A stretch of 64,000 bases of DNA from Anaerovoracaceae bacterium (GTDB taxonomy: Bacteria > Bacillota > Clostridia > Christensenellales > Aristaeellaceae). The position numbers and the translations under genes were made by a program. Where the stretch lies: positions 12,988 to 76,987 of the forward strand of contig CAVANO010000011.1 in NCBI GenBank assembly GCA_963590165.1, given 5' to 3'. The notes below the pieces were generated by a model that saw only the letters and a program-made list of their open reading frames with translations, was not told the DNA's origin and ran no database searches. Positions 2,169 to 63,901 of this stretch are shown one piece after another (the stretch's first letter is position 1; every line of letters starts with the position of its first letter).

Positions 2169-3110
2169 ATGCAGCCCAGACAAATGGTTCAAAGGCTGAT
2201 TAACAATATAAGCACCGTCATTGTCGGCAAGGAAGAGGTTGTTGAATACGCGCTGATTGCCCTTTTGTGCAAGGGACATATCCTGCTGGAGGACGTGCCC
2301 GGCGTCGGCAAGACAACACTTGCGAGCGCACTGGCGAAGTCGCTGGACTGCACGTTCCGGCGCATTCAGTTCACCCCCGACCTGATGCCGTCGGACGTTA
2401 CCGGCTATACGCTGGTGAATTTCAAGACCGGCGAAACGGAGTATCGCGAGGGTGCGGTGATGAGCCAGATTGTGCTGGCGGACGAAATCAATCGCACGAG
2501 TCCCAAGACGCAGTCGGCGCTGCTGGAAGTCATGGAGGAGTATCAGGTGACGGTGGACGGCGTGACGCACCCCGTGCCGCAGCCCTTCATCGTGCTGGCG
2601 ACGCAGAATCCGGGCGAGTTCGTCGGCACCTATCCGCTGCCGGAAGCGCAGATGGATCGCTTCTTCATGCGCCTGTCCATCGGTTATCCGACGATTGAGC
2701 AGGAGATGGACGTGCTGGAGCGTTATTCGGGCGTGGTGAAGCCGATGCAGACGCTGACGCCGGTATGCTCGGCAGCGGACGTCATCGCCATGCAGCAGAT
2801 GGTCACGCAGATTTACTGCTCGCCGGAGGTGCGGTCGTATGTCGCGACCATTGCCGCCGCAACGCGTCAGGATGCGTCCTTGCAGCTGGGCGCATCCACC
2901 CGTGCTGCCATCGCGCTGATTCACGGTGCGCAGGCGTGCGCGCTGCTCGCGGGGCGTGATTACATCATTCCGGAGGACGTGCAGCATATGGCGGTGCAGG
3001 TGCTTGCGCACCGTCTGGTGCTCAGCCCGGAGGCACGCATGAAGGGCGTTTCGGCGGAAAGCATCGTCCGGCGGATTGTCCGCAGCACGCCCGTGCCGGT
3101 GAAGCTGTGA
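2169..3110 (+). CDS. MoxR-family AAA+ ATPase
   Basis: Walker A LLEDVPGVGKT, Walker B VLADEINR, typical MoxR length (313 aa). Followed by DUF58 and transglutaminase genes. Confidence 0.9.
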   Translation: MQPRQMVQRLINNISTVIVGKEEVVEYALIALLCKGHILLEDVPGVGKTTLASALAKSLDCTFRRIQFTPDLMPSDVTGYTLVNFKTGETEYREGAVMSQIVLADEINRTSPKTQSALLEVMEEYQVTVDGVTHPVPQPFIVLATQNPGEFVGTYPLPEAQMDRFFMRLSIGYPTIEQEMDVLERYSGVVKPMQTLTPVCSAADVIAMQQMVTQIYCSPEVRSYVATIAAATRQDASLQLGASTRAAIALIHGAQACALLAGRDYIIPEDVQHMAVQVLAHRLVLSPEARMKGVSAESIVRRIVRSTPVPVKL

Positions 3111-8000: not shown

Positions 8001-8120
8001 GGGTCAAGGGGGGGACTTCGTCCCTTTTCCTGTCCCTTGCAGGGCTTGGGCAACGCCCCAACCTGTTATTCGCAGCCGAGCGGACGGACTTCGTCCGTTT
8101 TCGTTGAACCCCTTCTTCGA
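8001..8120. repeat. Composite intergenic repeat (GGGACTTCGTCCC and CGGACTTCGTCCG-TTTT modules)
   Basis: gtcaaggggGGGACttcGTCCCttttcc ... cggaCGGACttcGTCCGttttcgttgaaccccttc. The same modules recur at 11.57, 21.2, 40.03, 43.55 and 63.53 kb. Confidence 0.8.
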
Positions 8121-8208: not shown

Positions 8209-8260
8209 GAAAAACCAGGCGAAGCAAAAAACCAGGCGAAGCAAAAAACCAGGCGAAGCC
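8209..8260. repeat. Three tandem copies of a 17-nt unit (AAAAAACCAGGCGAAGC)
   Basis: Read directly. The last copy runs into CAGGCgaaGCCTG, a mini-hairpin also present in the 21.2 kb array and at 61.95 and 63.59 kb. Lies 17 nt upstream of the serA ATG. Confidence 0.85.
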
Positions 8261-8276: not shown

Positions 8277-9443
8277 ATGTATAAGATTAAGACACTGAAT
8301 TCGATTTCCGATATCATCCATGAGGAACTGTCGGCGGAGCAGTACGCCATCAGCGCGGAAGAGCCTGTGCCGGAAGGCATCCTTGTGCGCTCTGCCGCGA
8401 TGCATGACATGGCGCTTGGCGATGAACTGCTCGGCATTGCCCGTGCGGGTGCCGGCGTGAATAACATTCCGCTGGATCAGTGCACGAAGCAGGGCATCGC
8501 TGTGTTCAACACACCCGGCGCGAATGCCAATGCAGTGGCTGAGCTGGTGCTCGGTGCGCTCGTCATCGGCAGCCGCAATGTGGCGCCTGCCATTCGTTGG
8601 GCGGACACGCTCAAGGGGCAGGGTGACGTGGCAAAGCTGGTCGAAAAGGGCAAGTCGCAGTTCGTCGGACCGGAGCTGCGCGGTAAGACGCTGGGTGTCA
8701 TTGGTTTGGGCGCTATCGGCCGACTGGTCGCAAATGCTGCGTCCGCCGGTTACGGCATGAAGGTTGTCGGCTGCGACCCGTTCCTCTCGGTTGAAAGCGC
8801 ATGGGCGCTGAACAGCAGCGTCCGCCGTGCCGCAACGAATGACGACCTGTACGCGCAGGCGGACTACATCACCTTCCACGTACCGCTCAACGACAAGACG
8901 CGCGGCTCCATTGATGCGGCGGCGTTCGCGAAGATGAAGAAGGGTGTTATCCTGCTGAACTTTTCGCGCGGTGAGCTGGTCAACGTTGCTGACCTCAAGC
9001 AGGCGATTGCGGATGGTCAGGTCGGCGGTTATGTGACGGATTTCCCGTGCGATGAGCTGCTCGGCGTGGACAAGGTGACGTGCATTCCCCATCTGGGTGC
9101 ATCGACGCCGGAGAGCGAGGACAACTGCGCGCGCATGGCGGCGGCTGAACTGCGCGATTATCTGGAGTTCGGCTCGATTCACAACAGCGTGAATCTGCCC
9201 GAGCTGCCGATGGGCAAGCCTGAAAACGTGCGTGTGCTTGTCATCCACGAGAACATCCCCAACATGGTCGCGACCATCACGACCTGCATCTCGGCGGAGC
9301 ACATCAACATCGACAACCTGCAGAACAAGTCGAAGAAGGATGTCGCCGTGACCGTGATGGAAATGGCGGAAATGCCCTCGCGGCAGGCGCTGAATGTCAT
9401 CCGCACGATTGCCGGCGTCATTCGGGTCAGGGTGTTTGAGTAA
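8277..9443 (+). CDS. serA: D-3-phosphoglycerate dehydrogenase (with C-terminal ACT-like domain)
   Basis: NAD-binding GVIGLGAIGRLVA, 2-hydroxyacid dehydrogenase core, adjacent to serC. Confidence 0.88.
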   Translation: MYKIKTLNSISDIIHEELSAEQYAISAEEPVPEGILVRSAAMHDMALGDELLGIARAGAGVNNIPLDQCTKQGIAVFNTPGANANAVAELVLGALVIGSRNVAPAIRWADTLKGQGDVAKLVEKGKSQFVGPELRGKTLGVIGLGAIGRLVANAASAGYGMKVVGCDPFLSVESAWALNSSVRRAATNDDLYAQADYITFHVPLNDKTRGSIDAAAFAKMKKGVILLNFSRGELVNVADLKQAIADGQVGGYVTDFPCDELLGVDKVTCIPHLGASTPESEDNCARMAAAELRDYLEFGSIHNSVNLPELPMGKPENVRVLVIHENIPNMVATITTCISAEHINIDNLQNKSKKDVAVTVMEMAEMPSRQALNVIRTIAGVIRVRVFE

Positions 9444-21124: not shown

Positions 21125-21800
21125 TCAGAAACGGACTTCGTCTGATTTTTTGATTCCTTCGGTATCATGCTTGGTTTCATTTTCATGGTTAGACATTAGC
21201 AAATTGACAGGGGGCGATAGAACAGGCAAAGCCTGCGGTCGCGGACTTCGTCCGTTTTCTTCGACCCTTTCGGTATCATGCTTGGTTTCATTTTCATGGT
21301 TAGACATTAGCAAAATGACAGGGGGCGATAGAACAGGCAAAGCCTGCGGTCGCGGACTTCGCCCGTTTTCTTCGACCCCTTCGGTATCATGCTTGGTTTC
21401 ATTTTCATGGTTAGACATTAGCAAATTGACAGGGGGCGATAGAACAGGCAAAGCCTGCGGTCGCGGACTTCGTCCGTTTTCTTCGACCCCTTCGGTATCA
21501 TACTTGGTTTCATTTTCATGGTTAGACATTAGCAAATTGACAGGGGCTTTCCGGTCGCCCCCTTGACCCCTTCGGTATCATGCTTGGTTTCATTTTCATG
21601 GATGATTTTGTTTACGTTTTTCGGGGCTTTGCAATCGCCCCCGAACTCCTTCGCACAACTTGGTTTGTATTGCGGATTTTATTATAAAGCAAGCATGGAA
21701 AAAGTGTGCAGCCGAAGGGGTCAGGGGGCGATCGGAAAGCCCCCTGGGAAAGCCTCATAACAAAACTACTATGGAAATGAAAATTGCATGCCAAAGGCAG
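21125..21800. repeat. Tandem array B: 111-bp unit x about 4.5 plus extra GC-hairpin modules
   Basis: CTTCGGTATCATGCTTGG recurs at about 21157, 21268, 21379, 21490 and 21570. Units carry CAGGCaaaGCCTG and CGGACttcGTCCGtttt. The distal part has GGGGCtttccggtcGCCCCC, GGGGCtttgcaatcGCCCCC and GGGGGCgatcggaaaGCCCCC. Confidence 0.9.
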
Positions 21801-30425: not shown

Positions 30426-30491
30426 GGGCGTATCTCCTTTTCAACAGTTACATCATAACAAAAATGATGCAAAAGTGCAAGACCCGAAGAG

Positions 30492-31031
30492 TTCTCACTT
30501 CCATCGTCGAGCTTTAGCAAACGAACAAGGGGGCTTTCCGGTCGCCCCCTTAAACCCCTTCGGTTTTGGCGGATTATAATAGAACGCATGCCAGAAGGGT
30601 TCTCACTTCCATCGTCGAGTTTTAGCAAACGAAGAAGGGGGCTTTCCGGTCGCCCCCTTAAACCCCTTCGGTTTTGGCGGATTATAGTAGAACGCATGCC
30701 AGAAGGGTTCTCACTTCCATCGTCGAGTTTTAGCAAACGAAGAAGGGGGCTTTCCGGTCGCCCCCTTAAACCCCTTCGGTTTTGGCGGATTATAGTAGAA
30801 CGCATGCCAGAAGGGTTCTCACTTCCATCGTCGAGTTTTAGCAAACGAAGAAGGGGGCTTTCCGGTCGCCCCCTTAAACCCCTTCGGTTTTGGCGGATTA
30901 TAGTAGAACGCATGCCAGAAGGGTTCTCACTTCCATCGTCGAGTTTTAGCAAACGAAGAAGGGGGCTTTCCGGTCGCCCCCTTAAACCCCTTCGGTTTTG
31001 GCGGATTATATGATGGAACGCATGCCCGAAG
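30492..31031. repeat. Tandem array C: 108-bp unit x 5 (copies 2-5 essentially identical)
   Basis: TTCTCACTTCC recurs at 30492, 30600, 30708, 30816 and 30924. Each unit reads TCACTTCCATCGTCGAGTTTTAGCAAACGA + GGGGGCtttccggtcGCCCCC + ttaaaCCCCTTCGGttttgg + a TATA-rich box. Confidence 0.92.
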
Positions 31032-31062
31032 GGGTTCGGGGGCGAGATGAAAGCATCCGATT

Positions 31063-40011: not shown

Positions 40012-40200
40012 TGCGGGCTTTGTGATTGCGGATTTCGTCCGTTTTCGTTGAACCCCTTCGGGCATACTTGTCATTTCCATCGTTGAGCTTTGGCAAACGA
40101 TATAATGCCTTGCATTTTAAACCCACTATGGAAGTGCGAATCCGAAGGGTGCAGGGGCGACCGGAAAGATCCTGCTCGCCTCCGCAGAGGCGAAACCCCT
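40012..40200. repeat. Composite of three repeat-family modules (solo)
   Basis: GGGCTTTGTGATTGCGGAtttcGTCCGttttcgttgaaCCCCTTCGG (as at 43.55 kb). TCATTTCCATCGTTGAGCTTTGGCAAACGA (as in array C). CCGAAGGGTGCAGGGGCGACCGGAAAGATCCTGCTCGCCTCCGCAGAGGCGAAACCCC (as in arrays A and D). Confidence 0.85.
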
Positions 40201-40258
40201 GATTGTCCAATCATCACTGATTTCTCCGAAGGAATTGAAGCAAGTGACGGTAAAGCCC

Positions 40259-43200
40259 TTACTTCAATTCTCCGCTTGCTTTCATGGCTTCGTACTGCTC
40301 CAGCGAAATCAGGCAGCGGCGGGGCTTTGCGCCGTCCTTAGCAGAGATGATGCCGCGCTGCTCCATTTCATCGACAAGGCGTCCTGCGCGCGCATAGCCG
40401 AGCTTCAGCCGGCGCTGAATCAGGCTGGTCGAGACCTCGCGGTCGCGCACTGCCATTTCCACGCACTGCGAGAACAGGTCACGGTCGGACGCGGCGTATT
40501 CATCCACGGTCGAATTGGCATCGGGGTCGTCTTCGTCGCCGTCGTTGCCGGCGTTCTCAAGGCGAGCCATTTCATCCAGCACGGAATTGTCGTAGTTGGC
40601 AGGCGAATACTGGCGGATAAAGTCGGTAATGCCGTTGACCTCATCGTCTGTCAGGAAGCAACCCTGCACACGAATCGGCGTAAACTCGCCCATCGGCATG
40701 TACAGCATATCGCCGTAGCCCAGCAGCTGTTCGGCACCGTTGCGGTCGAGAATCGTGCGGCTGTCGACGTTCGAGGACACCTTAAACGCGATTCGGCTGG
40801 GGATATTCGCCTTAATCAGACCGGTAATGACATCCACGGACGGACGTTGCGTTGCGACGACCAGATGAATGCCGGCAGCACGGGCGAGCTGCGCCAGACG
40901 GCAGATGCGCTCTTCGACTTCCTTCTTGCACGTCATCATCAGGTCAGCCAGCTCGTCAATCACGATGACGATGCGCGGCAGCGGCTCTTCGTCCTCATCA
41001 AGGGACTCGTTGTAGCCGTCAATGGCGCGGACGCCCTTTTCCTGGAACAGCGTGTAGCGGTTCATCATCTCGCCGACTGCCCAGCCCAGCGCGCCGCTTG
41101 CCTTATGCGGGTCGGACACGACAGGAATCAGCAGGTGCGGAATGCCGTTGTAGCACTGCAATTCAACGACCTTCGGGTCAACGAGAATCATGCGGACTTC
41201 CTTGGGCGAGCAGCGGTACAGCAGCGAATTGATAATCGTGTTGATACACACGGATTTACCAGAACCGGTTGCACCGGCAATCAGCAGATGCGGCATTTTC
41301 GCAAGGTCGCAGAGAATCGGCACGCCGGCAATGTCCTTGCCGAGTGCGACGCTCAGCCGTCCCTTTGCCTTGCGCATCACGTCGGACTGCAGGACTTCCT
41401 TGAGCGTGACGGTCGTGCGTGCGCTGTTCGGCACCTCAACGCCGACAAGTGCCTTGCCGGGAATGGGCGCTTCGATGCGGACGGACTTGACCGCCATATT
41501 CATGGCGATGTTGTGGTTGAGGTTCGTGACCTTCGAGACCTTGATGCCCGGCGCGATTTCCAGCTCAAAGCGCGAAATCGCCGGTCCGTGCGTGATGTGG
41601 CGCACTTTCGCCGGAATGCGGAAGGACTTAAGCGTCTCTTCCAGCCGCTGGGTGCGCATGATATCCTCCTCCTCACTGATGCCCTGCTGAGGCGGCGGGT
41701 CGCGCAGGAGGATGACCGGCGGATACGTGTAGGGGATTTCAGGGTTGTAGGTGGACATGGCGGATGCGCCTGTTGCACTCGGTCCGCCGGACGGCGCTTC
41801 GGCGGTCGGTTTGGCGACCATGATGCCCTGCTTGGCGGAAGGCGGCGTGAAATCAGGCTTCTGCAGCGTTTCAGGGACGCTCCGCATGCCGGTGGACTTC
41901 TCCTGCGGTAGCTTCAATTCAGGCTGCCACGCGCCCTCGGGACGCGGTTGCGTCAGTACGGGCGACACAGCCTCCTTCGGCGCCTCCTCCGACTCCTCCC
42001 ACGGCGGACGGTCATCGAGCGACTCCGGAAATTCCGGCTCATCCTCAAGATCCTCCTCTGAAGGCTGTGCAACAGGCTTCGCCTGATTTGGCTCTGCCTG
42101 ATTTGGCATTGCCTGGTCTGGCATTGCCTGCACAGGCGATGTCTGTTGTGCCGTTTGCACAGGCGAAGCCTGTTGCGTCGTTTGCACAGGCGAAGCCTGC
42201 TGCATCGGTACGTCATTCCAGGTATACTGCGCCGGCGCACCGAGACCGGTATCTGCATTGCTCTTCGGCAGCTCATATGGGTCGATATTCGGCGGCTCAA
42301 CGGTCTCCGCATCGGTAAACGCCGGATTTTGCGCTGTATTGCCCTGCGGTTCCACTGCCTGCACAGCGCCCGTGCTGCTCCATGCAGAACGGCGGCGCGG
42401 CGTTGTCCAGCCTTCCGCAACGCTCGTCTGACCAAGTTCCTCCGCTGTCGGCGCGAAGCCGATATGGGTGTTCTTCCGGCTCTGAACGGAGGTAATCGGC
42501 TGCCCCTGCATTTCCGGCTTCGTGGGCTGATTCACCTGCTGCGGCCGCTGGTACGGGCTCTGTGCACCCTGCTGAGCCGTTGTCCCGGTTACCGGGTTCC
42601 CGGTTATCGGCTGCCCGGTTACCGGATTCCCGGCGACCGGGTTCCCGGTTATCGGATTCCCGGCGACCGGGTTCCCGGTTATCGGGTTCCCGGCGACCGG
42701 TTGCCTCGTTGTGCCGGGACGGGCATAAGGAGACGGACCACCCTGCGTATATCCGCCGCCATAGGGCTGCTGCGCCTGCGCTGCAATCTGCTGCTGACGC
42801 GCTGCTTCCTGACGGCGCGCCTCCTCCTCGGCGGCACGTTCAGCGCGCTCCTCCTGCCGCTCGCGTGCCAGTTCCAAGCGCTCGCTCAATGCTTCCTTCA
42901 GCCGTTTGACGAGCGGCCAGCAGCCAATCAGCACATCCACCGCAATCAGCAGACCCAGCACAACCGTGCCGAGCGTTCCGCCGAGGTACTTCCACAGCGG
43001 CCACGCCAGCAGCATGCCGACCATGCCGCCGCCCTGTCCCTTCATGCCATAGGTCATGCTCCGCGACATCATGCCGCCGAAGCTGTCAGAACCGTCAAGT
43101 GCCTTGATATAATCCGGCAGACAGAGCTGCCCTTCATTCGTGCTGACGAACGTCACCAGCGTCAGGAAACCGCACAGCAGCACGACAAGAATCGCATAGC

Positions 43201-48484: not shown

Positions 48485-50056
48485 TTACTCGCCTGCCATG
48501 ATGGCATTCACCGCGTCGACAACCGCCTGAGAGGTGATCGTTGCGCTGGTCACCGCATCAATGCCGTCGCCCAGCGTGAACGGTGCCTTCTTGCCGATGA
48601 ACTGCGCCGTGAATTCGTCTTCCGCGCACTTCTGACCCAGACCGGCGGTCTGCGTAGAAGCATCCACGCGCAGCGTCTTGATGACGCCGTCTTCATCCGT
48701 CACATACACGATGACATCGCCGTCGCCGAAGCCCTTGACCGTCACGGTCTTTTCGTCAGCAGGAACTTCCGGTTCGGCTGCGTACAGGCTGTTCACTGCA
48801 TCGACAACCGCCTGAGAGGTGATTGTTGCGCTTGCCACCGCATCAATGCCGTCGCCCAGCGTGAACGGTGCCTTCTTGCCGATGAACTGCGCCGTGAATT
48901 CGTCCTCTGCGCACTTCTGACCCAGACCGGCGGTCTGCGTAGAAGCGTCCACGCGCAGCGTCTTGATGACGCCGTCTTCGTCCGTCACATACACGATGAC
49001 ATCGCCATCGCCGAAGCCCTTGACCGTTACGGTCTTTTCGTCAGCAGGAGCTTCGCTCGCTTCCGGCTCGTTCACTTCCGACTCGCTCGCTTCCGTTTCG
49101 GCTGCTGCTTCCGGCTCAGCCGTTGCTTCCGGCTCAGCTGCAGCCAGCTCGTCTTCCGTCATTGCGGGAGCTTCCAGCGCTGCATTGATGGCTTCGACCG
49201 CCGCCGTCGAGGAGATCGTCGCGCCGGTCAGCGCATCCACGCCGTCACCCAGCGTGAACGGACCGCTCTTGCCGATGAACTGCGCCGTGAACTCTTCGCC
49301 TGCGCAGCGCGTGCCGAGACCTTCGGTCTGCGTGCTCGCATCGATGGTCAGCGCGGAAATCGTGCCGTCATCGTTGAGCGTCAGGCGCGCAACCACTTCA
49401 CCGCCGCCAAAGCCCGATGCCGTGCCCTGATGCACATCACCCGTCAGCACAACAGGCTCGGCAGCCGCCGTCTCCTGCTTCGCGCCGAAGGACAGCGGGT
49501 CGCCCTCGACATCCTTGCCGAGGACATGGCTGATGCACTTGAGCACGTTGTTGGAGGCAGTCAGCACCGCATTCGAGGTGAGCGTCGCGCCGGAAATCGC
49601 CTCGATGGTATCGCCGCCGTACGCGCTCACGCCCTTGAACTGCACCGCGCGTTCAGCCTCCTGCCAGCGTGCACCGAAACCGGCCGTTTCGGAGAAATTC
49701 GTATCGCCGATCTGGGCGCCGGTCACCTTGCCGTCCATGTCAACGCCGAGCGTGACCGCGACATCGCCGCCGTAGCCCTTCGCGGACGACACGGCACAGT
49801 AGCCGATGGTCTGACCGCCTTTCTTTGCCTCGACGAGCTTCGACACGTCGTAGCCCTCGGGAATGTCCATCGTGCTGAAGGTGTCAGCCTCCATGACGGA
49901 CTGGAAAGCGGCGTTCTGCGCGGCTTCCTCATGTTCCTTGATTGGTCCCTCGGTGATTGCATTTGTCACAGCCAGCGCCAGTGCAGCCACCAGTGCGATA
50001 ATCGCCAGAATGACATACGCCGGAAGCTGCTTTTTCGTTGCCTTGTTCTCGCTCAT
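48485..50056 (-). CDS. Membrane-anchored protein with four FMN-binding (FMN_bind) domains
   Basis: GGAGGAGG RBS. N-terminal TM. Four domains with flavinylation-type motifs SGATLTS, TGATISS and SATITS (x2). Domains 3 and 4 are a near-identical tandem duplication. Confidence 0.85.
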   Translation of the reverse strand: MSENKATKKQLPAYVILAIIALVAALALAVTNAITEGPIKEHEEAAQNAAFQSVMEADTFSTMDIPEGYDVSKLVEAKKGGQTIGYCAVSSAKGYGGDVAVTLGVDMDGKVTGAQIGDTNFSETAGFGARWQEAERAVQFKGVSAYGGDTIEAISGATLTSNAVLTASNNVLKCISHVLGKDVEGDPLSFGAKQETAAAEPVVLTGDVHQGTASGFGGGEVVARLTLNDDGTISALTIDASTQTEGLGTRCAGEEFTAQFIGKSGPFTLGDGVDALTGATISSTAAVEAINAALEAPAMTEDELAAAEPEATAEPEAAAETEASESEVNEPEASEAPADEKTVTVKGFGDGDVIVYVTDEDGVIKTLRVDASTQTAGLGQKCAEDEFTAQFIGKKAPFTLGDGIDAVASATITSQAVVDAVNSLYAAEPEVPADEKTVTVKGFGDGDVIVYVTDEDGVIKTLRVDASTQTAGLGQKCAEDEFTAQFIGKKAPFTLGDGIDAVTSATITSQAVVDAVNAIMAGE

Positions 50057-51619: not shown

Positions 51620-51648
51620 TTTACAATCTTCGTCTTTTCCGATATAAT
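51620..51648 (+). promoter_or_regulatory. sigma-70-type promoter of the ECF S-component gene
   Basis: TTTACA (51620-51625), 17 nt, TATAAT (51643-51648). Leaves a leader of about 110 nt. Confidence 0.5.
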
Positions 51649-51765
51649 AGCATTATCCGCATGGTTTGCGCCGCTGAGAGCACAGGCATCAGACGGTCAG
51701 GACAAATATGCGGAAATCATAATCATCGTAGGGTACCCGAATGGGACTCGAACGGAGGCAAAAAA

Positions 51766-52377
51766 ATGAATACGCAAAGCACGAATCTTGTCAGGCTGCT
51801 GACGCTGACGATGCTCGCGGCACTCATCTTCCTGATGGGGCAGACGCCGATCGGGCTGATTCCGCTGGGCTTCTGCAACGTGACGCTGCTGGTCATCCCG
51901 GTGGCGGTCGGCACGCTGTTCATGGGGCTGAACAGCGGCTTGATTTTAGGGCTCGTCTTCGGCGCGACAAGTTTTCTGTCCGCGCTGCTGCGCCCGTCGA
52001 CGCTCGTTGCAACGCTCATGGGCGAATCGCCGCTGCTGGTCGTTGTGATGACGTTCGTGCCGCGGCTGATGGTGCCGGTCGTTATTCATTTCGTGTACAA
52101 GCTCATGGCACACAAGCTCGACAAGACGGGGTTGGCGGTGGCATCGGCATGCGGAAGCCTGACAAACACGGTTCTGTATCTGGGGCTGATGCTGCTGTTT
52201 TACGTGATGTGCGGCATTGACAACACAGCGGTGCTGACGGCGATTGGGGCGACTGCCGGCGGTGCCGGACCGCTGGAAGCGGTGGCCGCGGCACTGATTA
52301 CGCCCCCGATTGTGCTGGCGCTGAGAAAGGCGCTGCATCGCAAGGGAATGAGCGCTTCCTCGGAGAGGGAAAAGTGA
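51766..52377 (+). CDS. ECF transporter S component, probable pantothenate-specific (PanT-like)
   Basis: ORF 51616..52377. ATG 51766 lies after ACGGAGG. 6 TM helices. IGLIPLGFCNVTLLVIPVAVGTLFMG..GLILGLVFGATSF pattern. Next same-strand gene is coaX. Confidence 0.7.
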   Translation: MNTQSTNLVRLLTLTMLAALIFLMGQTPIGLIPLGFCNVTLLVIPVAVGTLFMGLNSGLILGLVFGATSFLSALLRPSTLVATLMGESPLLVVVMTFVPRLMVPVVIHFVYKLMAHKLDKTGLAVASACGSLTNTVLYLGLMLLFYVMCGIDNTAVLTAIGATAGGAGPLEAVAAALITPPIVLALRKALHRKGMSASSEREK

Positions 52378-52389
52378 TTTTTCTTTTGC

Positions 52390-52895
52390 AGCAAAGGTTT
52401 CGCATCTGCGGATGCGGGCAGGGGCTTTGCGATCACCCTTGCACCCTTCGAATTCCGATCTTAGCAATCGGTCGCTATTGTAACAGGAAAGTTTCGCGTC
52501 TGCGGATGCGAGCAGGGACTTTGCGATCGCCCCTGCACCCTTCGCATTCCGATCTTTGCAATCGGTCACTATTGTAACAGGAAGGTTTCGCATCTGCGGA
52601 TGCGGGCAGGGGCTTTGCGATCACCCTTGCACCCTTCGAATTCCGATCTTAGCAATCGGTCGCTATTGTAACAGGAAAGTTTCGCGTCTGCGGATGCGAG
52701 CAGGGACTTTGCGATCGCCCCTGCACCCTTCGCATTCCGATCTTTGCAATCGGTCACTATTGTAACAGGAAGGTTTCGCATCTGCGGATGCGAGCAGGGG
52801 CTTTGCGATCGCCCCTGCACCCTTCGCATTCCGATCTTAGCAATCGGTCGCTATTGTAACAGGAAGGTTTCGCGTCTGCGGATGCGGGCAGGGGC
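52390..52895 (+). repeat. Tandem array D: 94-bp unit x about 5.4, alternating variants (188-bp super-period)
   Basis: GTTTCGC recurs at 52397, 52491, 52585, 52679, 52773 and 52867. Each unit has three hairpins: CGCRTCtgcgGATGCG, GCAGGGGCtttgcgatcRCCCYTGC and CCGATctt(a/t)gcaATCGG. Fills the panT-coaX gap. Confidence 0.92.
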
Positions 52896-52973
52896 ATGAA
52901 AACGGATGAAGTCCGCAGGATATAAAAAAGGACGAAGTCCATAAAATCGGATGAAGTTCGGGAGGTACAGAGG

Positions 52974-53741
52974 ATGATCCTGACACTTGACATCGGCAAT
53001 ACCAACATCAAGACAGCGCTTTTTGAAGGCAAGGACATGAAGCATTACTGGCGGCTGTCGACGAACATCCTGTATTCCTCTGATGAATACGGTATTCTGC
53101 TGACGAACCTGTTCCGCCATGATGGGGTGGAGCCTGCCTGCGTTGAGGGGATCATGATTTCCTCTGTCGTCCCGACGGTGAATTTCACCATCGAGCACAT
53201 GTGCCAGAATTACTTCGGTATCACGCCGCTGTTCGTCGTGCCGGGCATCAGGACGGGCATCAACATCCGCTATGAAAACCCGCGCGAGCTCGGCAGCGAC
53301 CGCATCGCCAATGCCGTCGCCGCGTATGAGGAATACGGCGCGCCGACTATTTTCATTGACTTCGGCACAGCAACGACGTTTGGCGTCATCGCCGAAGGCG
53401 GCGCGTTCCTGGGCGGATGCATCTGCCCGGGCGTGAAGCTGGCGAGCGAGGCGCTTGTCAGCGGCACCGCGAAACTGCCGCGCTTCGAGCTGACAAAGCC
53501 GGAGCACGTCATCGGGCGAACGACCCTTGCCAACCTGCAATCCGGCATGTATTACGGCTATGTCGGGCTGGTGAAGAACATCGTCCGCAAAATCAAGCAA
53601 GAGCTCGGACATGACGCGCTCGTTGTCGCGACAGGCGGCATGGCAGTCATGATTGCCGAGGAAAGCAAGGTCATCGACAAGCTGGATGGGCTGCTGACGC
53701 TCAAGGGACTGCGGCTCATCTATGAACGGAACAAGAATTGA
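52974..53741 (+). CDS. coaX: Type III pantothenate kinase
   Basis: MILTLDIGNTNIKTALF..., GSDRIANAVAA, IDFGTATTF. 255 aa. Confidence 0.92.
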   Translation: MILTLDIGNTNIKTALFEGKDMKHYWRLSTNILYSSDEYGILLTNLFRHDGVEPACVEGIMISSVVPTVNFTIEHMCQNYFGITPLFVVPGIRTGINIRYENPRELGSDRIANAVAAYEEYGAPTIFIDFGTATTFGVIAEGGAFLGGCICPGVKLASEALVSGTAKLPRFELTKPEHVIGRTTLANLQSGMYYGYVGLVKNIVRKIKQELGHDALVVATGGMAVMIAEESKVIDKLDGLLTLKGLRLIYERNKN

Positions 53742-57398: not shown

Positions 57399-59345
57399 TT
57401 GAAACGAATGCGATGGATACTCTGCCTGCTGATGTGCATCGCGCTGCTCGCGGCAGGATTGCCATTTTCGCTGGCAGCGGATGCCTCATCGGATGAAGCG
57501 CCGACCGTGCGGGTGCTCCTGCGGCGGCTGCAGCTGACCGACCGTGCCGACCTTACGCTCGATGGCGCGTATACCGTGCTGGTGAACGGTCAGGCACTGC
57601 TTGCGCTGCCGGAGGATGCCGAGGTGACTGTGCAAATCCGCTCCGGCGAGCTGTATTTGTTTTACAGCGGCATGAGCCTTCGCCTCGGGAAAAGCGCGGT
57701 GTTCCAGCGGAATCAATCCGCCACGGATATGCCCGGGCTGCGCTTCAGCAAGACAGGTAACCTGTACCCCGGCACGCTGTCGCTGTCCATCGAGAACGGG
57801 CTGCTCGTGCCCATCCTGACGCTGTCGGTCGAAGACTACCTGCTCGGCGTCGTGCCGTATGAGATGAGCGACAGCTTTCCGCTTGAGGCGCTCAAGGCGC
57901 AGGCAGTCTGTGCACGCACCTATGCGCTGTCACACCTGAATTCCTCCCGAACCTATGACGTTGTCGACACAACGAACGATCAGGTTTTCCGCGGCGTTGA
58001 TGCATCGACCACCAATGCCGCCCGCGCCGTCAAGGAGACGGCAGGCATTGTCGGCACCTACAACGGCAAGCTCGCTGAGTGCTTCTACAGCGCCAGCAAC
58101 GGCGGTCAGACCGAGCTGGTGCAAAACGTCTGGTCCGGCAGCGGCGATTACAGCTATTACGCCATGGTCGATGATCCGTATGACCTGGAGAATCCGCTGA
58201 GCATCGTCCGCACGGTGAAAATCGGCAAGGACGGCAGCATGCCTGATGCGCTCAAAACGCTGCTGCACGAGAAGATGCTCGCGGAACTGATTCAGGGCGG
58301 CTATTCCGAGGCACTGGAGGACTTCCGCATCGACAGCATCTCCGCGGTGTCCGCCGAAACACCGTTATTCGATGCGCCGAGCCGCCGCATGAGCGAGCTG
58401 GTCATCACCTTCACCTGGTCAGGCAAGAAGCAACTTGCCGATATTCTGCCCTCTGCCACCGCCGCGACCAGTGCTTCGGCTGACTACGCGGTTCCGTCCG
58501 CCGTCGATGAGGATTGGGACTTGGGCGACAGCACCGCCATGCCGACTGACACGCCATCCCCCTTGCCGACCGAAACGCCGACAACTGTCCCGACGCCCGA
58601 CCCGACCGTGCAGCTGACCGACTTCCTTTCCGGCGGCGAAGCGACCGTTACGCTTGCCCTGAGCAGCAGCGTCATCACCGCGCTGTCCCTGCACATCTCC
58701 GGCAGCGAGGTCATCTCTGTCACAGAGGAGGACAGCCGCTTTCTCGTGCAGGCACGGCGCTACGGGCACGGCGTCGGCATGAGCCAGCGCGGTGCGCAGT
58801 GGATGGCAAGCCGCTACGGCAAGACCTTCGATGAGATTCTCGCCTTTTATTATCCGGGCATGACGCTGATGAAGACGTCTTCCGGTGATTTGACGCTGCC
58901 GACCGTGCCGTCTGCACTCGCCGACACGCCCGCACCGGCCGCCACCGCGACCCCGAAGCCCACGCTGATGCCTGTCACGACCGATTCTCTGCCCGATGGC
59001 GCGACTGTCATGTACGTCAACGCCTCCAGTTTGAATCTCCGCGCAGAGCCGAGCATGGCTGCCGACCTGCTGATGCGCCTGCAGTCCGGTCAGCAGGTTA
59101 TTGTCCTGGAAACGTGCGATGACCCGGAGTGGGTGCACGTCCGCACGGATGTCATCGAGGGCTACTGCATGGTCAGCTACCTCGCCGCCGCTGACGCTTC
59201 GTCCGCCCAGCCTTCGCAGCATGTCACTGTCACGCCGGCTGTACCGGCAACGCCGGAGGTATCGGCAACGCCGGAGGTACCGGCAACGCCGGAGGTACCA
59301 GCAACACCGGAGGTGCCGGCAACGCCGGCGCCGGATCCTGAATAA
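57399..59345 (+). CDS. SpoIID/LytB-domain protein with SH3-like domain and Pro-rich repeats
   Basis: TTG start 6 nt after GGAGGA (alternative ATG 57408). Signal peptide. EDYLLGVVPYEM...ALKAQAVCARTYAL, GHGVGMSQRGA. C-terminal SH3b-like region, then the (PATPEV)n tail. Confidence 0.85.
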   Translation: MKRMRWILCLLMCIALLAAGLPFSLAADASSDEAPTVRVLLRRLQLTDRADLTLDGAYTVLVNGQALLALPEDAEVTVQIRSGELYLFYSGMSLRLGKSAVFQRNQSATDMPGLRFSKTGNLYPGTLSLSIENGLLVPILTLSVEDYLLGVVPYEMSDSFPLEALKAQAVCARTYALSHLNSSRTYDVVDTTNDQVFRGVDASTTNAARAVKETAGIVGTYNGKLAECFYSASNGGQTELVQNVWSGSGDYSYYAMVDDPYDLENPLSIVRTVKIGKDGSMPDALKTLLHEKMLAELIQGGYSEALEDFRIDSISAVSAETPLFDAPSRRMSELVITFTWSGKKQLADILPSATAATSASADYAVPSAVDEDWDLGDSTAMPTDTPSPLPTETPTTVPTPDPTVQLTDFLSGGEATVTLALSSSVITALSLHISGSEVISVTEEDSRFLVQARRYGHGVGMSQRGAQWMASRYGKTFDEILAFYYPGMTLMKTSSGDLTLPTVPSALADTPAPAATATPKPTLMPVTTDSLPDGATVMYVNASSLNLRAEPSMAADLLMRLQSGQQVIVLETCDDPEWVHVRTDVIEGYCMVSYLAAADASSAQPSQHVTVTPAVPATPEVSATPEVPATPEVPATPEVPATPAPDPE

Positions 59346-63512: not shown

Positions 63513-63875
63513 GGCTTCGCGGACTTCGCAGACTTCGCGGACTTCGTCCGTTTTTTCAGACTTCGCAGACTTCGTCTGTCTTTTTCAGGCTTTGCCTGAT
63601 TTTGACCCCTTCGGGTAAGTACCCTGCGAAGGGGTTCGGGGACGACCGCAAAGCCCCCGAAACAGAATATAGCGATCTCCAATACCCAATAGAGTAGCAA
63701 TAAAAAAAGCCTTCGGGTAAGCGCACTGCGAAGGGGTTCGGGGGCGAGCGCAAAGCCCCCGAAACAGAATATAGTTATCCCCAATACCCAATAGAGTAGC
63801 AATAAAAACCCCTTCGGGTAAGTACCCTGCGAAGGGTTTCGGGGGCGAGCGCAAAGCCCCCGAAATAGACATTCC
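63513..63875. repeat. Array F: GACTTCG mini-hairpin cluster followed by a 101/102-bp unit x about 2.6
   Basis: CGGACttcGTCCGtttttt and CAGACttcGTCTGtcttttt, then CCTTCGGGTAAG at 63608, 63710 and 63811. Each unit has CCCCTTCGGGTAagTACCCtgcGAAGGGG and TTCGGGGGCgagcgcaaaGCCCCCGAA. Confidence 0.9.
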
Positions 63876-63901
63876 CAATTCCCAAGAGAGCAGGTGAACA
63901 G

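Follow-up and report, generated by a model that had tools for sequence, protein, structure and literature searches.

A tandem hairpin array in a pantothenate kinase operon belongs to a dispersed, REP-like family of intergenic palindromic repeats in gut Clostridia

The BOX elements of Streptococcus pneumoniae are intergenic repeats built of modules, one of which occurs in tandem in variable number, with stable hairpins predicted when the element is transcribed. The MIRU-VNTRs of Mycobacterium tuberculosis place tandem units of 40-100 bp in operon spacers at many loci, with strain-variable copy number, and their units contain short reading frames that are coupled to the genes on either side. The classical REP superfamilies are defined by a GTAG or CGTC tetranucleotide tag at the palindrome end (PMC3733652).

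Here, we analyzed a 94-bp tandem array in the spacer between an ECF transporter S-component gene and coaX, within a 64-kb contig segment (the window, meaning the whole stretch of 64,000 nucleotides). The array repeats a palindromic core in which the GTAG/CGTC tag is absent: its conserved flanks are GCAGGGrwTT and CCCCTTCG, and CGTC occurs only in some stem variants of the first hairpin. The features of the locus, in window coordinates, are:

51766-52377, + strand: ECF transporter S-component gene, 203 aa (Pfam PF12822, 56.9 bits)
52392, 52486, 52580, 52674 and 52768, + strand: starts of the five 94-nt array units (repeat cutting)
52777-52792, + strand: hairpin 1 of the intact unit 5, CGCATC tgcg GATGCG (folds; 94-nt offset per unit)
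52794-52818, + strand: hairpin 2 of unit 5, GCAGGGGC tttgcgatc GCCCCTGC (folds and family covariation)
52819-52826, + strand: conserved box ACCCTTCG of unit 5, directly after hairpin 2
52831-52847, + strand: hairpin 3 of unit 5, CCGAT cttagca ATCGG, weaker (fold)
52862-52895, + strand: 34-nt partial sixth unit (repeat cutting)
52896-52973, + strand: spacer outside the array; it contains three short GGAYGAAGTYC hairpins and GGGAGG, the ribosome-binding site of coaX
52903-52915, 52930-52940 and 52948-52960: the GGAYGAAGTYC hairpins of this spacer
52974-53741, + strand: coaX, type III pantothenate kinase (NCBIfam NF009855, 323 bits, cut-off 233; Pfam Pan_kinase)

The S-component gene had no match in NCBIfam, and the 'panT-like' label given to it by the initial annotation is a putative one, drawn from the link to coaX alone. 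That annotation had further described six 94-bp units. The array is real, called by Tandem Repeats Finder at 52389-52895 (period 94, 5.4 copies, 91% matches) and again with a period of 188 (2.7 copies, 98% matches), and it comprises five full units plus the 34-nt partial one; a covariance model of the core (R1, see below) recovers the full units with E-values between 1e-16 and 1e-19 and the partial one with 1e-4. The two alternating variants and the 188-bp super-period that had been proposed are borne out, in that units 2 and 4 are identical, units 1 and 3 are identical apart from 2 nt at the junction, and variants 1 and 2 differ at 9 of 94 columns, while unit 5 is a mosaic of both variants that has the unmutated state at all stem positions. 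Given zero differences between units 2 and 4 and ~10% between neighbouring units, the 188-bp dimer would have been duplicated very recently. The array starts 11-12 nt past the S-component stop codon TGA (52375-52377) and ends 78 nt ahead of the coaX ATG (52974), which adjusts the 13 nt first given and agrees with the distance of about 80 nt. The hairpin 3 motif is found, within the window, in this array only and lies outside the core that the array shares with other loci; together with the tail that follows it, reaching 52861 in unit 5, it is the lineage-specific portion of the array unit.

Anchored profiles placed the extent of the family core at ~62 nt, corresponding to the first 62 nt of the array unit with its two hairpins, beyond which conservation is near background. 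The core runs from GCAGGGrwTT through hairpin 1 (CGCNNC-tgcg-GNNGCG) and hairpin 2 (9 bp, loop TTTsCGnTC) to the box CCCCTTCG. The covariance model R1, built from 124 distinct core copies, yielded 23 matches at E < 1e-3 in the 64-kb window, nearly all of them intergenic according to a heuristic ORF-based gene map. Besides the 94-bp array, the window contains the following members and relatives:

17500-17891, - strand: array A, 135-bp period, 2.7 copies, three two-hairpin cores with a different tail (Tandem Repeats Finder, R1)
21498-21761, mixed orientation: three hairpin-2-type copies, beside a 111-bp array at 21132-21546
30486-31033, + strand: related array, 5.1 copies at a 108-bp period, antisense to the genes on either side
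40139-40205, - strand: solo core copy downstream of an ftsK-like gene (motif match, R1)
63605-63889, - strand: related array, 102-bp period, 2.6 copies, module of hairpin 2 and box

The hairpin-1 motif occurs 11 times in the window, where 0.06 occurrences are expected by chance. The three states of one stem pair that the initial annotation had quoted, A-T, G-T and C-G, are all present: CGCATC/GATGCG and CGCGTC/GATGCG in the 94-bp array, and CGCCTC/GAGGCG on the minus strand, in three copies at 17.5 kb and a single one at 40.18 kb. Array A sits between SMC and rsmG, both encoded on the minus strand, and each of the window's three loci with a hairpin 1 lies sense to the genes beside it. Although the sample is small, this is what a role in RNA predicts, and it counts against reading the array as a DNA repeat. 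The unit at 30486-31033 consists of hairpin 2 and a CCCCTTCGG box without hairpin 1, and this short module recurs at 4.3, 21.5-21.8, 24.8, 30.5-31.0 and 63.6-63.9 kb. Across the window, hairpin 1, hairpin 2, the box and a GAC hairpin are mixed as a mosaic of modules, and within each array all units point one way.

The window is rich in repeats more generally. The four intergenic tandem arrays other than the 94-bp one (17533-17891, 21132-21546, 30486-31033 and 63605-63869, with periods of 135, 111, 108 and 102 bp; 2.6-5.1 copies) draw on overlapping sets of modules, and five such arrays per 64 kb is unusually dense for a bacterial chromosome. A second small hairpin family, CGGACTTCGTCCG, often followed by TTTTC, lies at 8085, 21132-21476, 40029, 43551, 52903-52960 and 63538, and also at 11580-11652; about half of its loci are antisense to the flanking genes, so that its copies are not simply terminators. 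Three copies in minus orientation stand directly upstream of the coaX ribosome-binding site, also in L002, a same-species strain described below. A perfect 17-nt tandem repeat, AAAAACCAGGCGAAGCA (2.9 copies, 100% identical, 8210-8259), is intergenic and located just upstream of a gene starting at 8277. Within genes, in-frame coding tandem repeats include 15/30-nt repeats in the ftsK-like gene (42583-42700), an 18-nt repeat (59232-59328) in the ORF at 57399-59345, and a 285-nt repeat at 48507-49054 in a protein with four FMN_bind domains.

Beyond the window, a pattern scan detected the core in at least 120 metagenome stretches, nearly all from human-gut assemblies with 55-63% G+C, and the same core pattern in 19 IMG/VR contigs. 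The latter (L134-L152) are predicted viral contigs, and L134 has two copies 101 nt apart. A narrower pattern for the GCAGG subfamily was found in species-representative genomes of Ca. Limiplasma and two other MAGs, in a scan that returned 6 loci, one of them a chance match, and in which the taxonomic spread is thinly sampled; the CoaX homologues (83-85% identity) come from records named Christensenellaceae or Clostridiales bacterium, with Christensenellaceae bacterium at 85%, and the host is placed by these names together with the Ca. Limiplasma matches. In the chromosomes of Christensenellales-like Clostridia of the human gut, the family takes the form of single copies, inverted doublets and tandem arrays. 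Outside the window, 7 loci (one on an IMG/VR contig, the others on 6 genome or metagenome contigs) have directly repeated neighbours at periods of 93-127 nt, and 6 loci have inverted doublets at a constant 163-175 nt. Of 144 copies, 32 lie at most 150 nt from where the retrieved stretch ends, which is often also the end of the contig; repeats on which assemblies break should leave this trace.

For an analysis of orientation, orthologous sites were collapsed into 97 clusters and genes were assigned with a simple, heuristic caller based on third-position G+C. By this measure, 5 of the 97 de-duplicated sites are called inside a gene, 23 are sense to both neighbours, 23 antisense, 9 convergent and 6 divergent. 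A structured RNA would be expected to keep a fixed orientation and position relative to the gene it regulates, and equal numbers of sense and antisense sites are not the pattern of an RNA acting in cis within a sense transcript. REP/REPIN elements have a cognate single-copy Y1/HUH transposase gene (RAYT) that the repeats flank. Here, no recurrent transposase-like protein family was found near the copies in ~0.9 Mb of loci, where only housekeeping families recur, and no transposase or other mobilising enzyme was found among the scanned window genes, which are likewise housekeeping (e.g. SMC, RsmG, FtsK, AlaRS and RNase Y). A search for tRNA and tmRNA genes found none. Rfam 15 gave 0 matches at the gathering score over the whole window and only chance-level matches (E >= 0.9) in E-value mode over 52300-53000. 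In the searchable literature, we found no published REP-like repeats in Clostridia or Christensenellales, nor the core sequence itself.

The initial annotation had pointed to covariation among aligned copies as the way to judge its hairpins, and family-wide both stems co-vary strongly. In the 124-sequence alignment, hairpin 1 is 99.1% and hairpin 2 96.4% paired, counts that rest mainly on columns left free by the search pattern, which specified the inner half of hairpin 2 together with some hairpin-1 positions and so enriched for intact copies. The covariation score is 0.372 compared with 0.154 in column shuffles, with 0 of 500 shuffles attaining the observed score, and slid controls all score far lower. 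The hairpin-1 pair quoted in that annotation is distributed family-wide as CG 52, GC 45, UA 15, AU 8 and GU 1, its neighbour as UA 65, CG 47, GC 6, AU 4 and UG 2, and five pairs of hairpin 2 likewise switch among Watson-Crick types. Intermediates are nearly absent, with G·T found 10 times and A·C 14 times among ~1,860 stem cells. The covariation is therefore strong and almost purely Watson-Crick, lacking the tolerance of G·U on the transcribed strand only that would mark a structured RNA. The loops (TGCG; TTTsCGnTC) are highly conserved and the stems variable, and hairpin-1 and hairpin-2 variants combine in a nearly full matrix.

Between related gut strains, orthologous intergenic sites can carry different, perfectly complementary stems, as in L117 compared with L054, and also L026 with L032 and L119 with L013; L119 has a chimeric hairpin 1, CGCCTC/GGCGCG. 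As far as such sequence comparisons go, different perfect stems and a chimera suggest exchange or gene conversion between copies, or palindrome-templated change, rather than slow compensatory drift of an RNA. The type of hairpin 2 is tightly linked to the box sequence; no consistent alternative pairing that could underlie this link was found, and we attribute it to descent within subfamilies. RNAfold also proposes a closing stem for unit 5, P1 (GGAAGG/CCTTC), which was dismissed, being only 76% paired in the family with an upstream strand that does not covary with box type.

Inside the array itself, the picture is different from that between loci. Of the nine variable columns, four are stem positions, all without compensation; true double stem changes occur between loci only. 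On the + strand, variant 2 has a G·T in hairpin 1 and an A·C in hairpin 2 (which the minus strand would read as a G·T wobble), and variant 1 has a G·T in hairpin 2 plus a C·A mismatch at the closing pair of that hairpin. The compensatory changes ascribed to the array thus hold for the family and not for the array's own four stem substitutions, and the description of hairpin 2 of variant 1 as pairing if G-U is allowed was correct about the G·T but omitted both the closing C·A mismatch and the A·C of variant 2. On either strand, the substitutions amount to 2 wobbles and 2 mismatches, whose roles swap between strands. Predicted RNA folds of single units gave:

Variant 1 (unit 1): + strand -27.2 kcal/mol, - strand -28.9 kcal/mol
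Variant 2 (unit 2): + strand -29.6 kcal/mol, - strand -31.9 kcal/mol
Unit 5 (intact): + strand -39.5 kcal/mol (z = -3.55), - strand -41.4 kcal/mol (z = -4.58)

Only unit 5 stands out against shuffles, the other four full units having z of -0.7 to -1.5 on the + strand. DNA folding parameters gave the same picture, and for the entire spacer the fold has z = -3.6 (+ strand) and z = -3.8 (- strand). Because the wobbles are balanced and both strands fold equally well, the earlier argument that G-U pairs single out the + strand, and hence an RNA, fails.

We then considered the history of the locus. One related contig, L001 (Logan SRR13434677), is 100% identical to the window and breaks off inside the array. 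The other same-species sequence, L002 (ENA ERZ27246005, 97% identical), consists of the left flank, 30 nt of a unit and the right flank, a 124-nt spacer that also retains the non-array part corresponding to 52896-52973. As a k=119 assembly cannot make this junction unless reads span it, L002 truly lacks the array. Relatives whose CoaX is 80-90% identical keep the gene order S-component, coaX, hom, with the three genes in a tightly spaced operon, and their S-component-coaX spacers measure 12 nt (L154), 15-16 nt (L155, L156, L159), 18 nt (L132) or 24 nt (L129-131); the longer spacers of L157 (84 nt) and L153 (112 nt) contain unrelated small palindromes. The array is consequently not conserved at the orthologous locus, and presenting it as a feature of the operon does not survive the comparison of copy number across strains (5.4 units in the window, 0.3 in L002). 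Judging from these spacers, it is a recent, strain-specific invasion of an ancestrally tight operon, followed by expansion.

With respect to transcription, a promoter-like TTTACA-17-TATAAT (11/12 matches) lies at 51620-51648, upstream of the S-component gene, and no promoter-like sites were found inside the spacer 52378-52973, nor terminator-like sites on either strand of it. The core ends CCCTTCG and does not present the GC-rich hairpin followed by a U run of an intrinsic terminator. Given the upstream promoter-like site and a spacer in which neither kind of match was found, read-through of the array within the operon mRNA is plausible and, on these predictions, likely.

The leader of the S-component gene, which is ~115 nt long and follows the promoter-like site, is of separate interest, being conserved in seven relatives with compensatory changes. 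It was located at:

51620-51768, + strand: leader region in the window
2762-2875: L002
2288-2406: L129 and L130
1448-1566: L131
1032-1149: L132
1793-1915: L155
1706-1819: L157 and L158
1750-1875: L159

Its invariant blocks include GGACG, CGUAGGG and GAACGGAGG, the last of which contains the ribosome-binding site. RNAalifold, applied to seven sequences, predicts two hairpins with 19 pairs, 6 of which show compensatory changes, and an outer stem also co-varies by eye (UCCGC/GCGGA, UCCCC/GGGGA). The leader has no Rfam match at E up to 10, and a covariance model (R2) finds it only upstream of the S-component-coaX-hom operon in ~1.2 Mb of related DNA. We regard it as a candidate for an uncatalogued, riboswitch-like regulator beside pantothenate kinase.

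Together, these data make it probable that the array is a locally amplified palindromic repeat of the DNA level, a passenger on the operon transcript with at most generic, REP-like effects. It would have arisen by local tandem amplification of one member of a large, dispersed family of intergenic palindromes that would reach new sites by transposition in trans or by recombination. Growth may have proceeded by replication slippage or unequal recombination, through an initial 94-bp duplication, divergence by ~10% and a recent duplication of the 188-bp dimer. The constraint on the stems would apply to the palindrome in DNA rather than to a + strand RNA, and could reflect recognition of hairpin or cruciform DNA by some protein, or template-switch correction within the palindrome. 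Hairpins in the operon mRNA might at most form a generic, REP-like barrier to 3' exonucleases or a partial attenuator. Against a REP-like reading, we count that no transposase was found near the copies or among the scanned window genes and that the GTAG/CGTC tags are absent. An extension of it, tentative and on balance doubtful, is that gut Clostridia have an undescribed system of mobilisation or maintenance for which the core is the substrate, a functional analogue of REP/RAYT without the tags. If that were so, the invariant loops would be the part recognised by protein, direct arrays would be products of amplification, and the stem pairs that switch freely yet stay Watson-Crick (2 bp of hairpin 1 and 5 bp of hairpin 2) would act as lineage 'barcodes' or be renewed by hairpin-templated correction.

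The covarying hairpins, the conserved operon, the likely read-through and the all-sense hairpin-1 loci of the window would also fit a structured RNA in the sense mRNA of the S-component-coaX operon, selected on the + strand for processing, insulation or dosage control. We consider this improbable in view of the even family-wide split between sense and antisense sites, the lack of any enrichment of G·T over A·C, the uncompensated substitutions on both strands, a minus strand that folds as well or better, the degraded state of four of the five full units, and the absence of the array from the 97%-identical strain and all relatives. Orientation independence fits a DNA-level or symmetric function, and conserved loops on variable stems suggest sequence-specific recognition; along with the very high density of 23 copies in 64 kb, these features could also be accommodated by an element that the host has recruited for a genome-wide role (for example as a binding site of gyrase or a nucleoid protein, or as a barrier in both directions), neither selfish nor neutral, of which the array would be a high-dose version. 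Since close strains differ in presence and copy number, the array contains decayed units and the proposal comes without a named partner protein, it too appears unlikely. Least credible by a wide measure is an independent non-coding RNA, whether a CsrB-like protein sponge, with AGGA and CGGA motifs in each unit, or a CRISPR-like array. Repeated hairpin units, ACAGGAAGG between units and GCGGAUG at the hairpin-1 loop are in its favor, but no promoter or terminator flanks the array and no Rfam family matches. For a CsrA sponge in particular, the family does not conserve GGA, and its hairpin 1 frequently reads CGCGCC/GGCGCG; in a CRISPR array, the 'spacers' would not themselves repeat, as they do here, the whole 94-nt unit recurring (unit 2 in unit 4, and unit 1 in unit 3 apart from the 2 junction nt).

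On the preferred reading of a DNA-level repeat, a striking array of co-varying hairpins in a vitamin-uptake operon is repeat DNA and not a regulator, and recognizing it as such averts a false ncRNA annotation. A very abundant repeat family is thereby documented in under-studied human-gut Clostridia, absent from Rfam and from the searchable literature. Its members break short-read assemblies, make copy-number markers between strains and may alter the expression of the operons that they invade, and the family offers a test case for how perfect palindromes are kept up without G·U intermediates.

Among described systems, the family most resembles REP, REPIN and BIME elements, as a short GC-rich palindrome dispersed in many intergenic copies, which are found singly, as inverted doublets or in clusters and form mosaics together with further short motifs. 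Further similarities are frequent cotranscription in operons, stems kept complementary, and presence and copy number that vary between strains. It differs in that the core has two adjacent hairpins over ~62 nt and not one hairpin of 20-40 nt, in its Clostridia host, compared with the Enterobacteria and Pseudomonas that host classical REPs, and in forming direct head-to-tail arrays (94-135 bp periods), with one orientation within every window array, where the palindromic units of BIMEs alternate and are set apart by other conserved motifs. Nor is the family known to have a RAYT gene. BOX elements are similar as modular intergenic repeats in a Gram-positive host, but are not known to share sequence similarity with the family, which has no known counterparts of the terminal modules boxA and boxC. 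Like MIRU-VNTRs, the array is a tandem unit in an operon spacer whose copies vary (5.4 in the window, 0.3 in L002), whereas its unit of 94 nt is not a multiple of 3, leaving no frame for translational coupling, and is dominated by hairpins. Correia/NEMIS and other MITEs are also non-autonomous, intergenic, cotranscribed and hairpin-forming, and the inverted doublets at 6 loci resemble elements with terminal inverted repeats; the family, in which neither target-site duplication nor defined ends could be made out, consists mostly of single cores or direct arrays. On these comparisons, it is a new REP-like family of intergenic palindromic repeats, separate from the RAYT-REP superfamilies.
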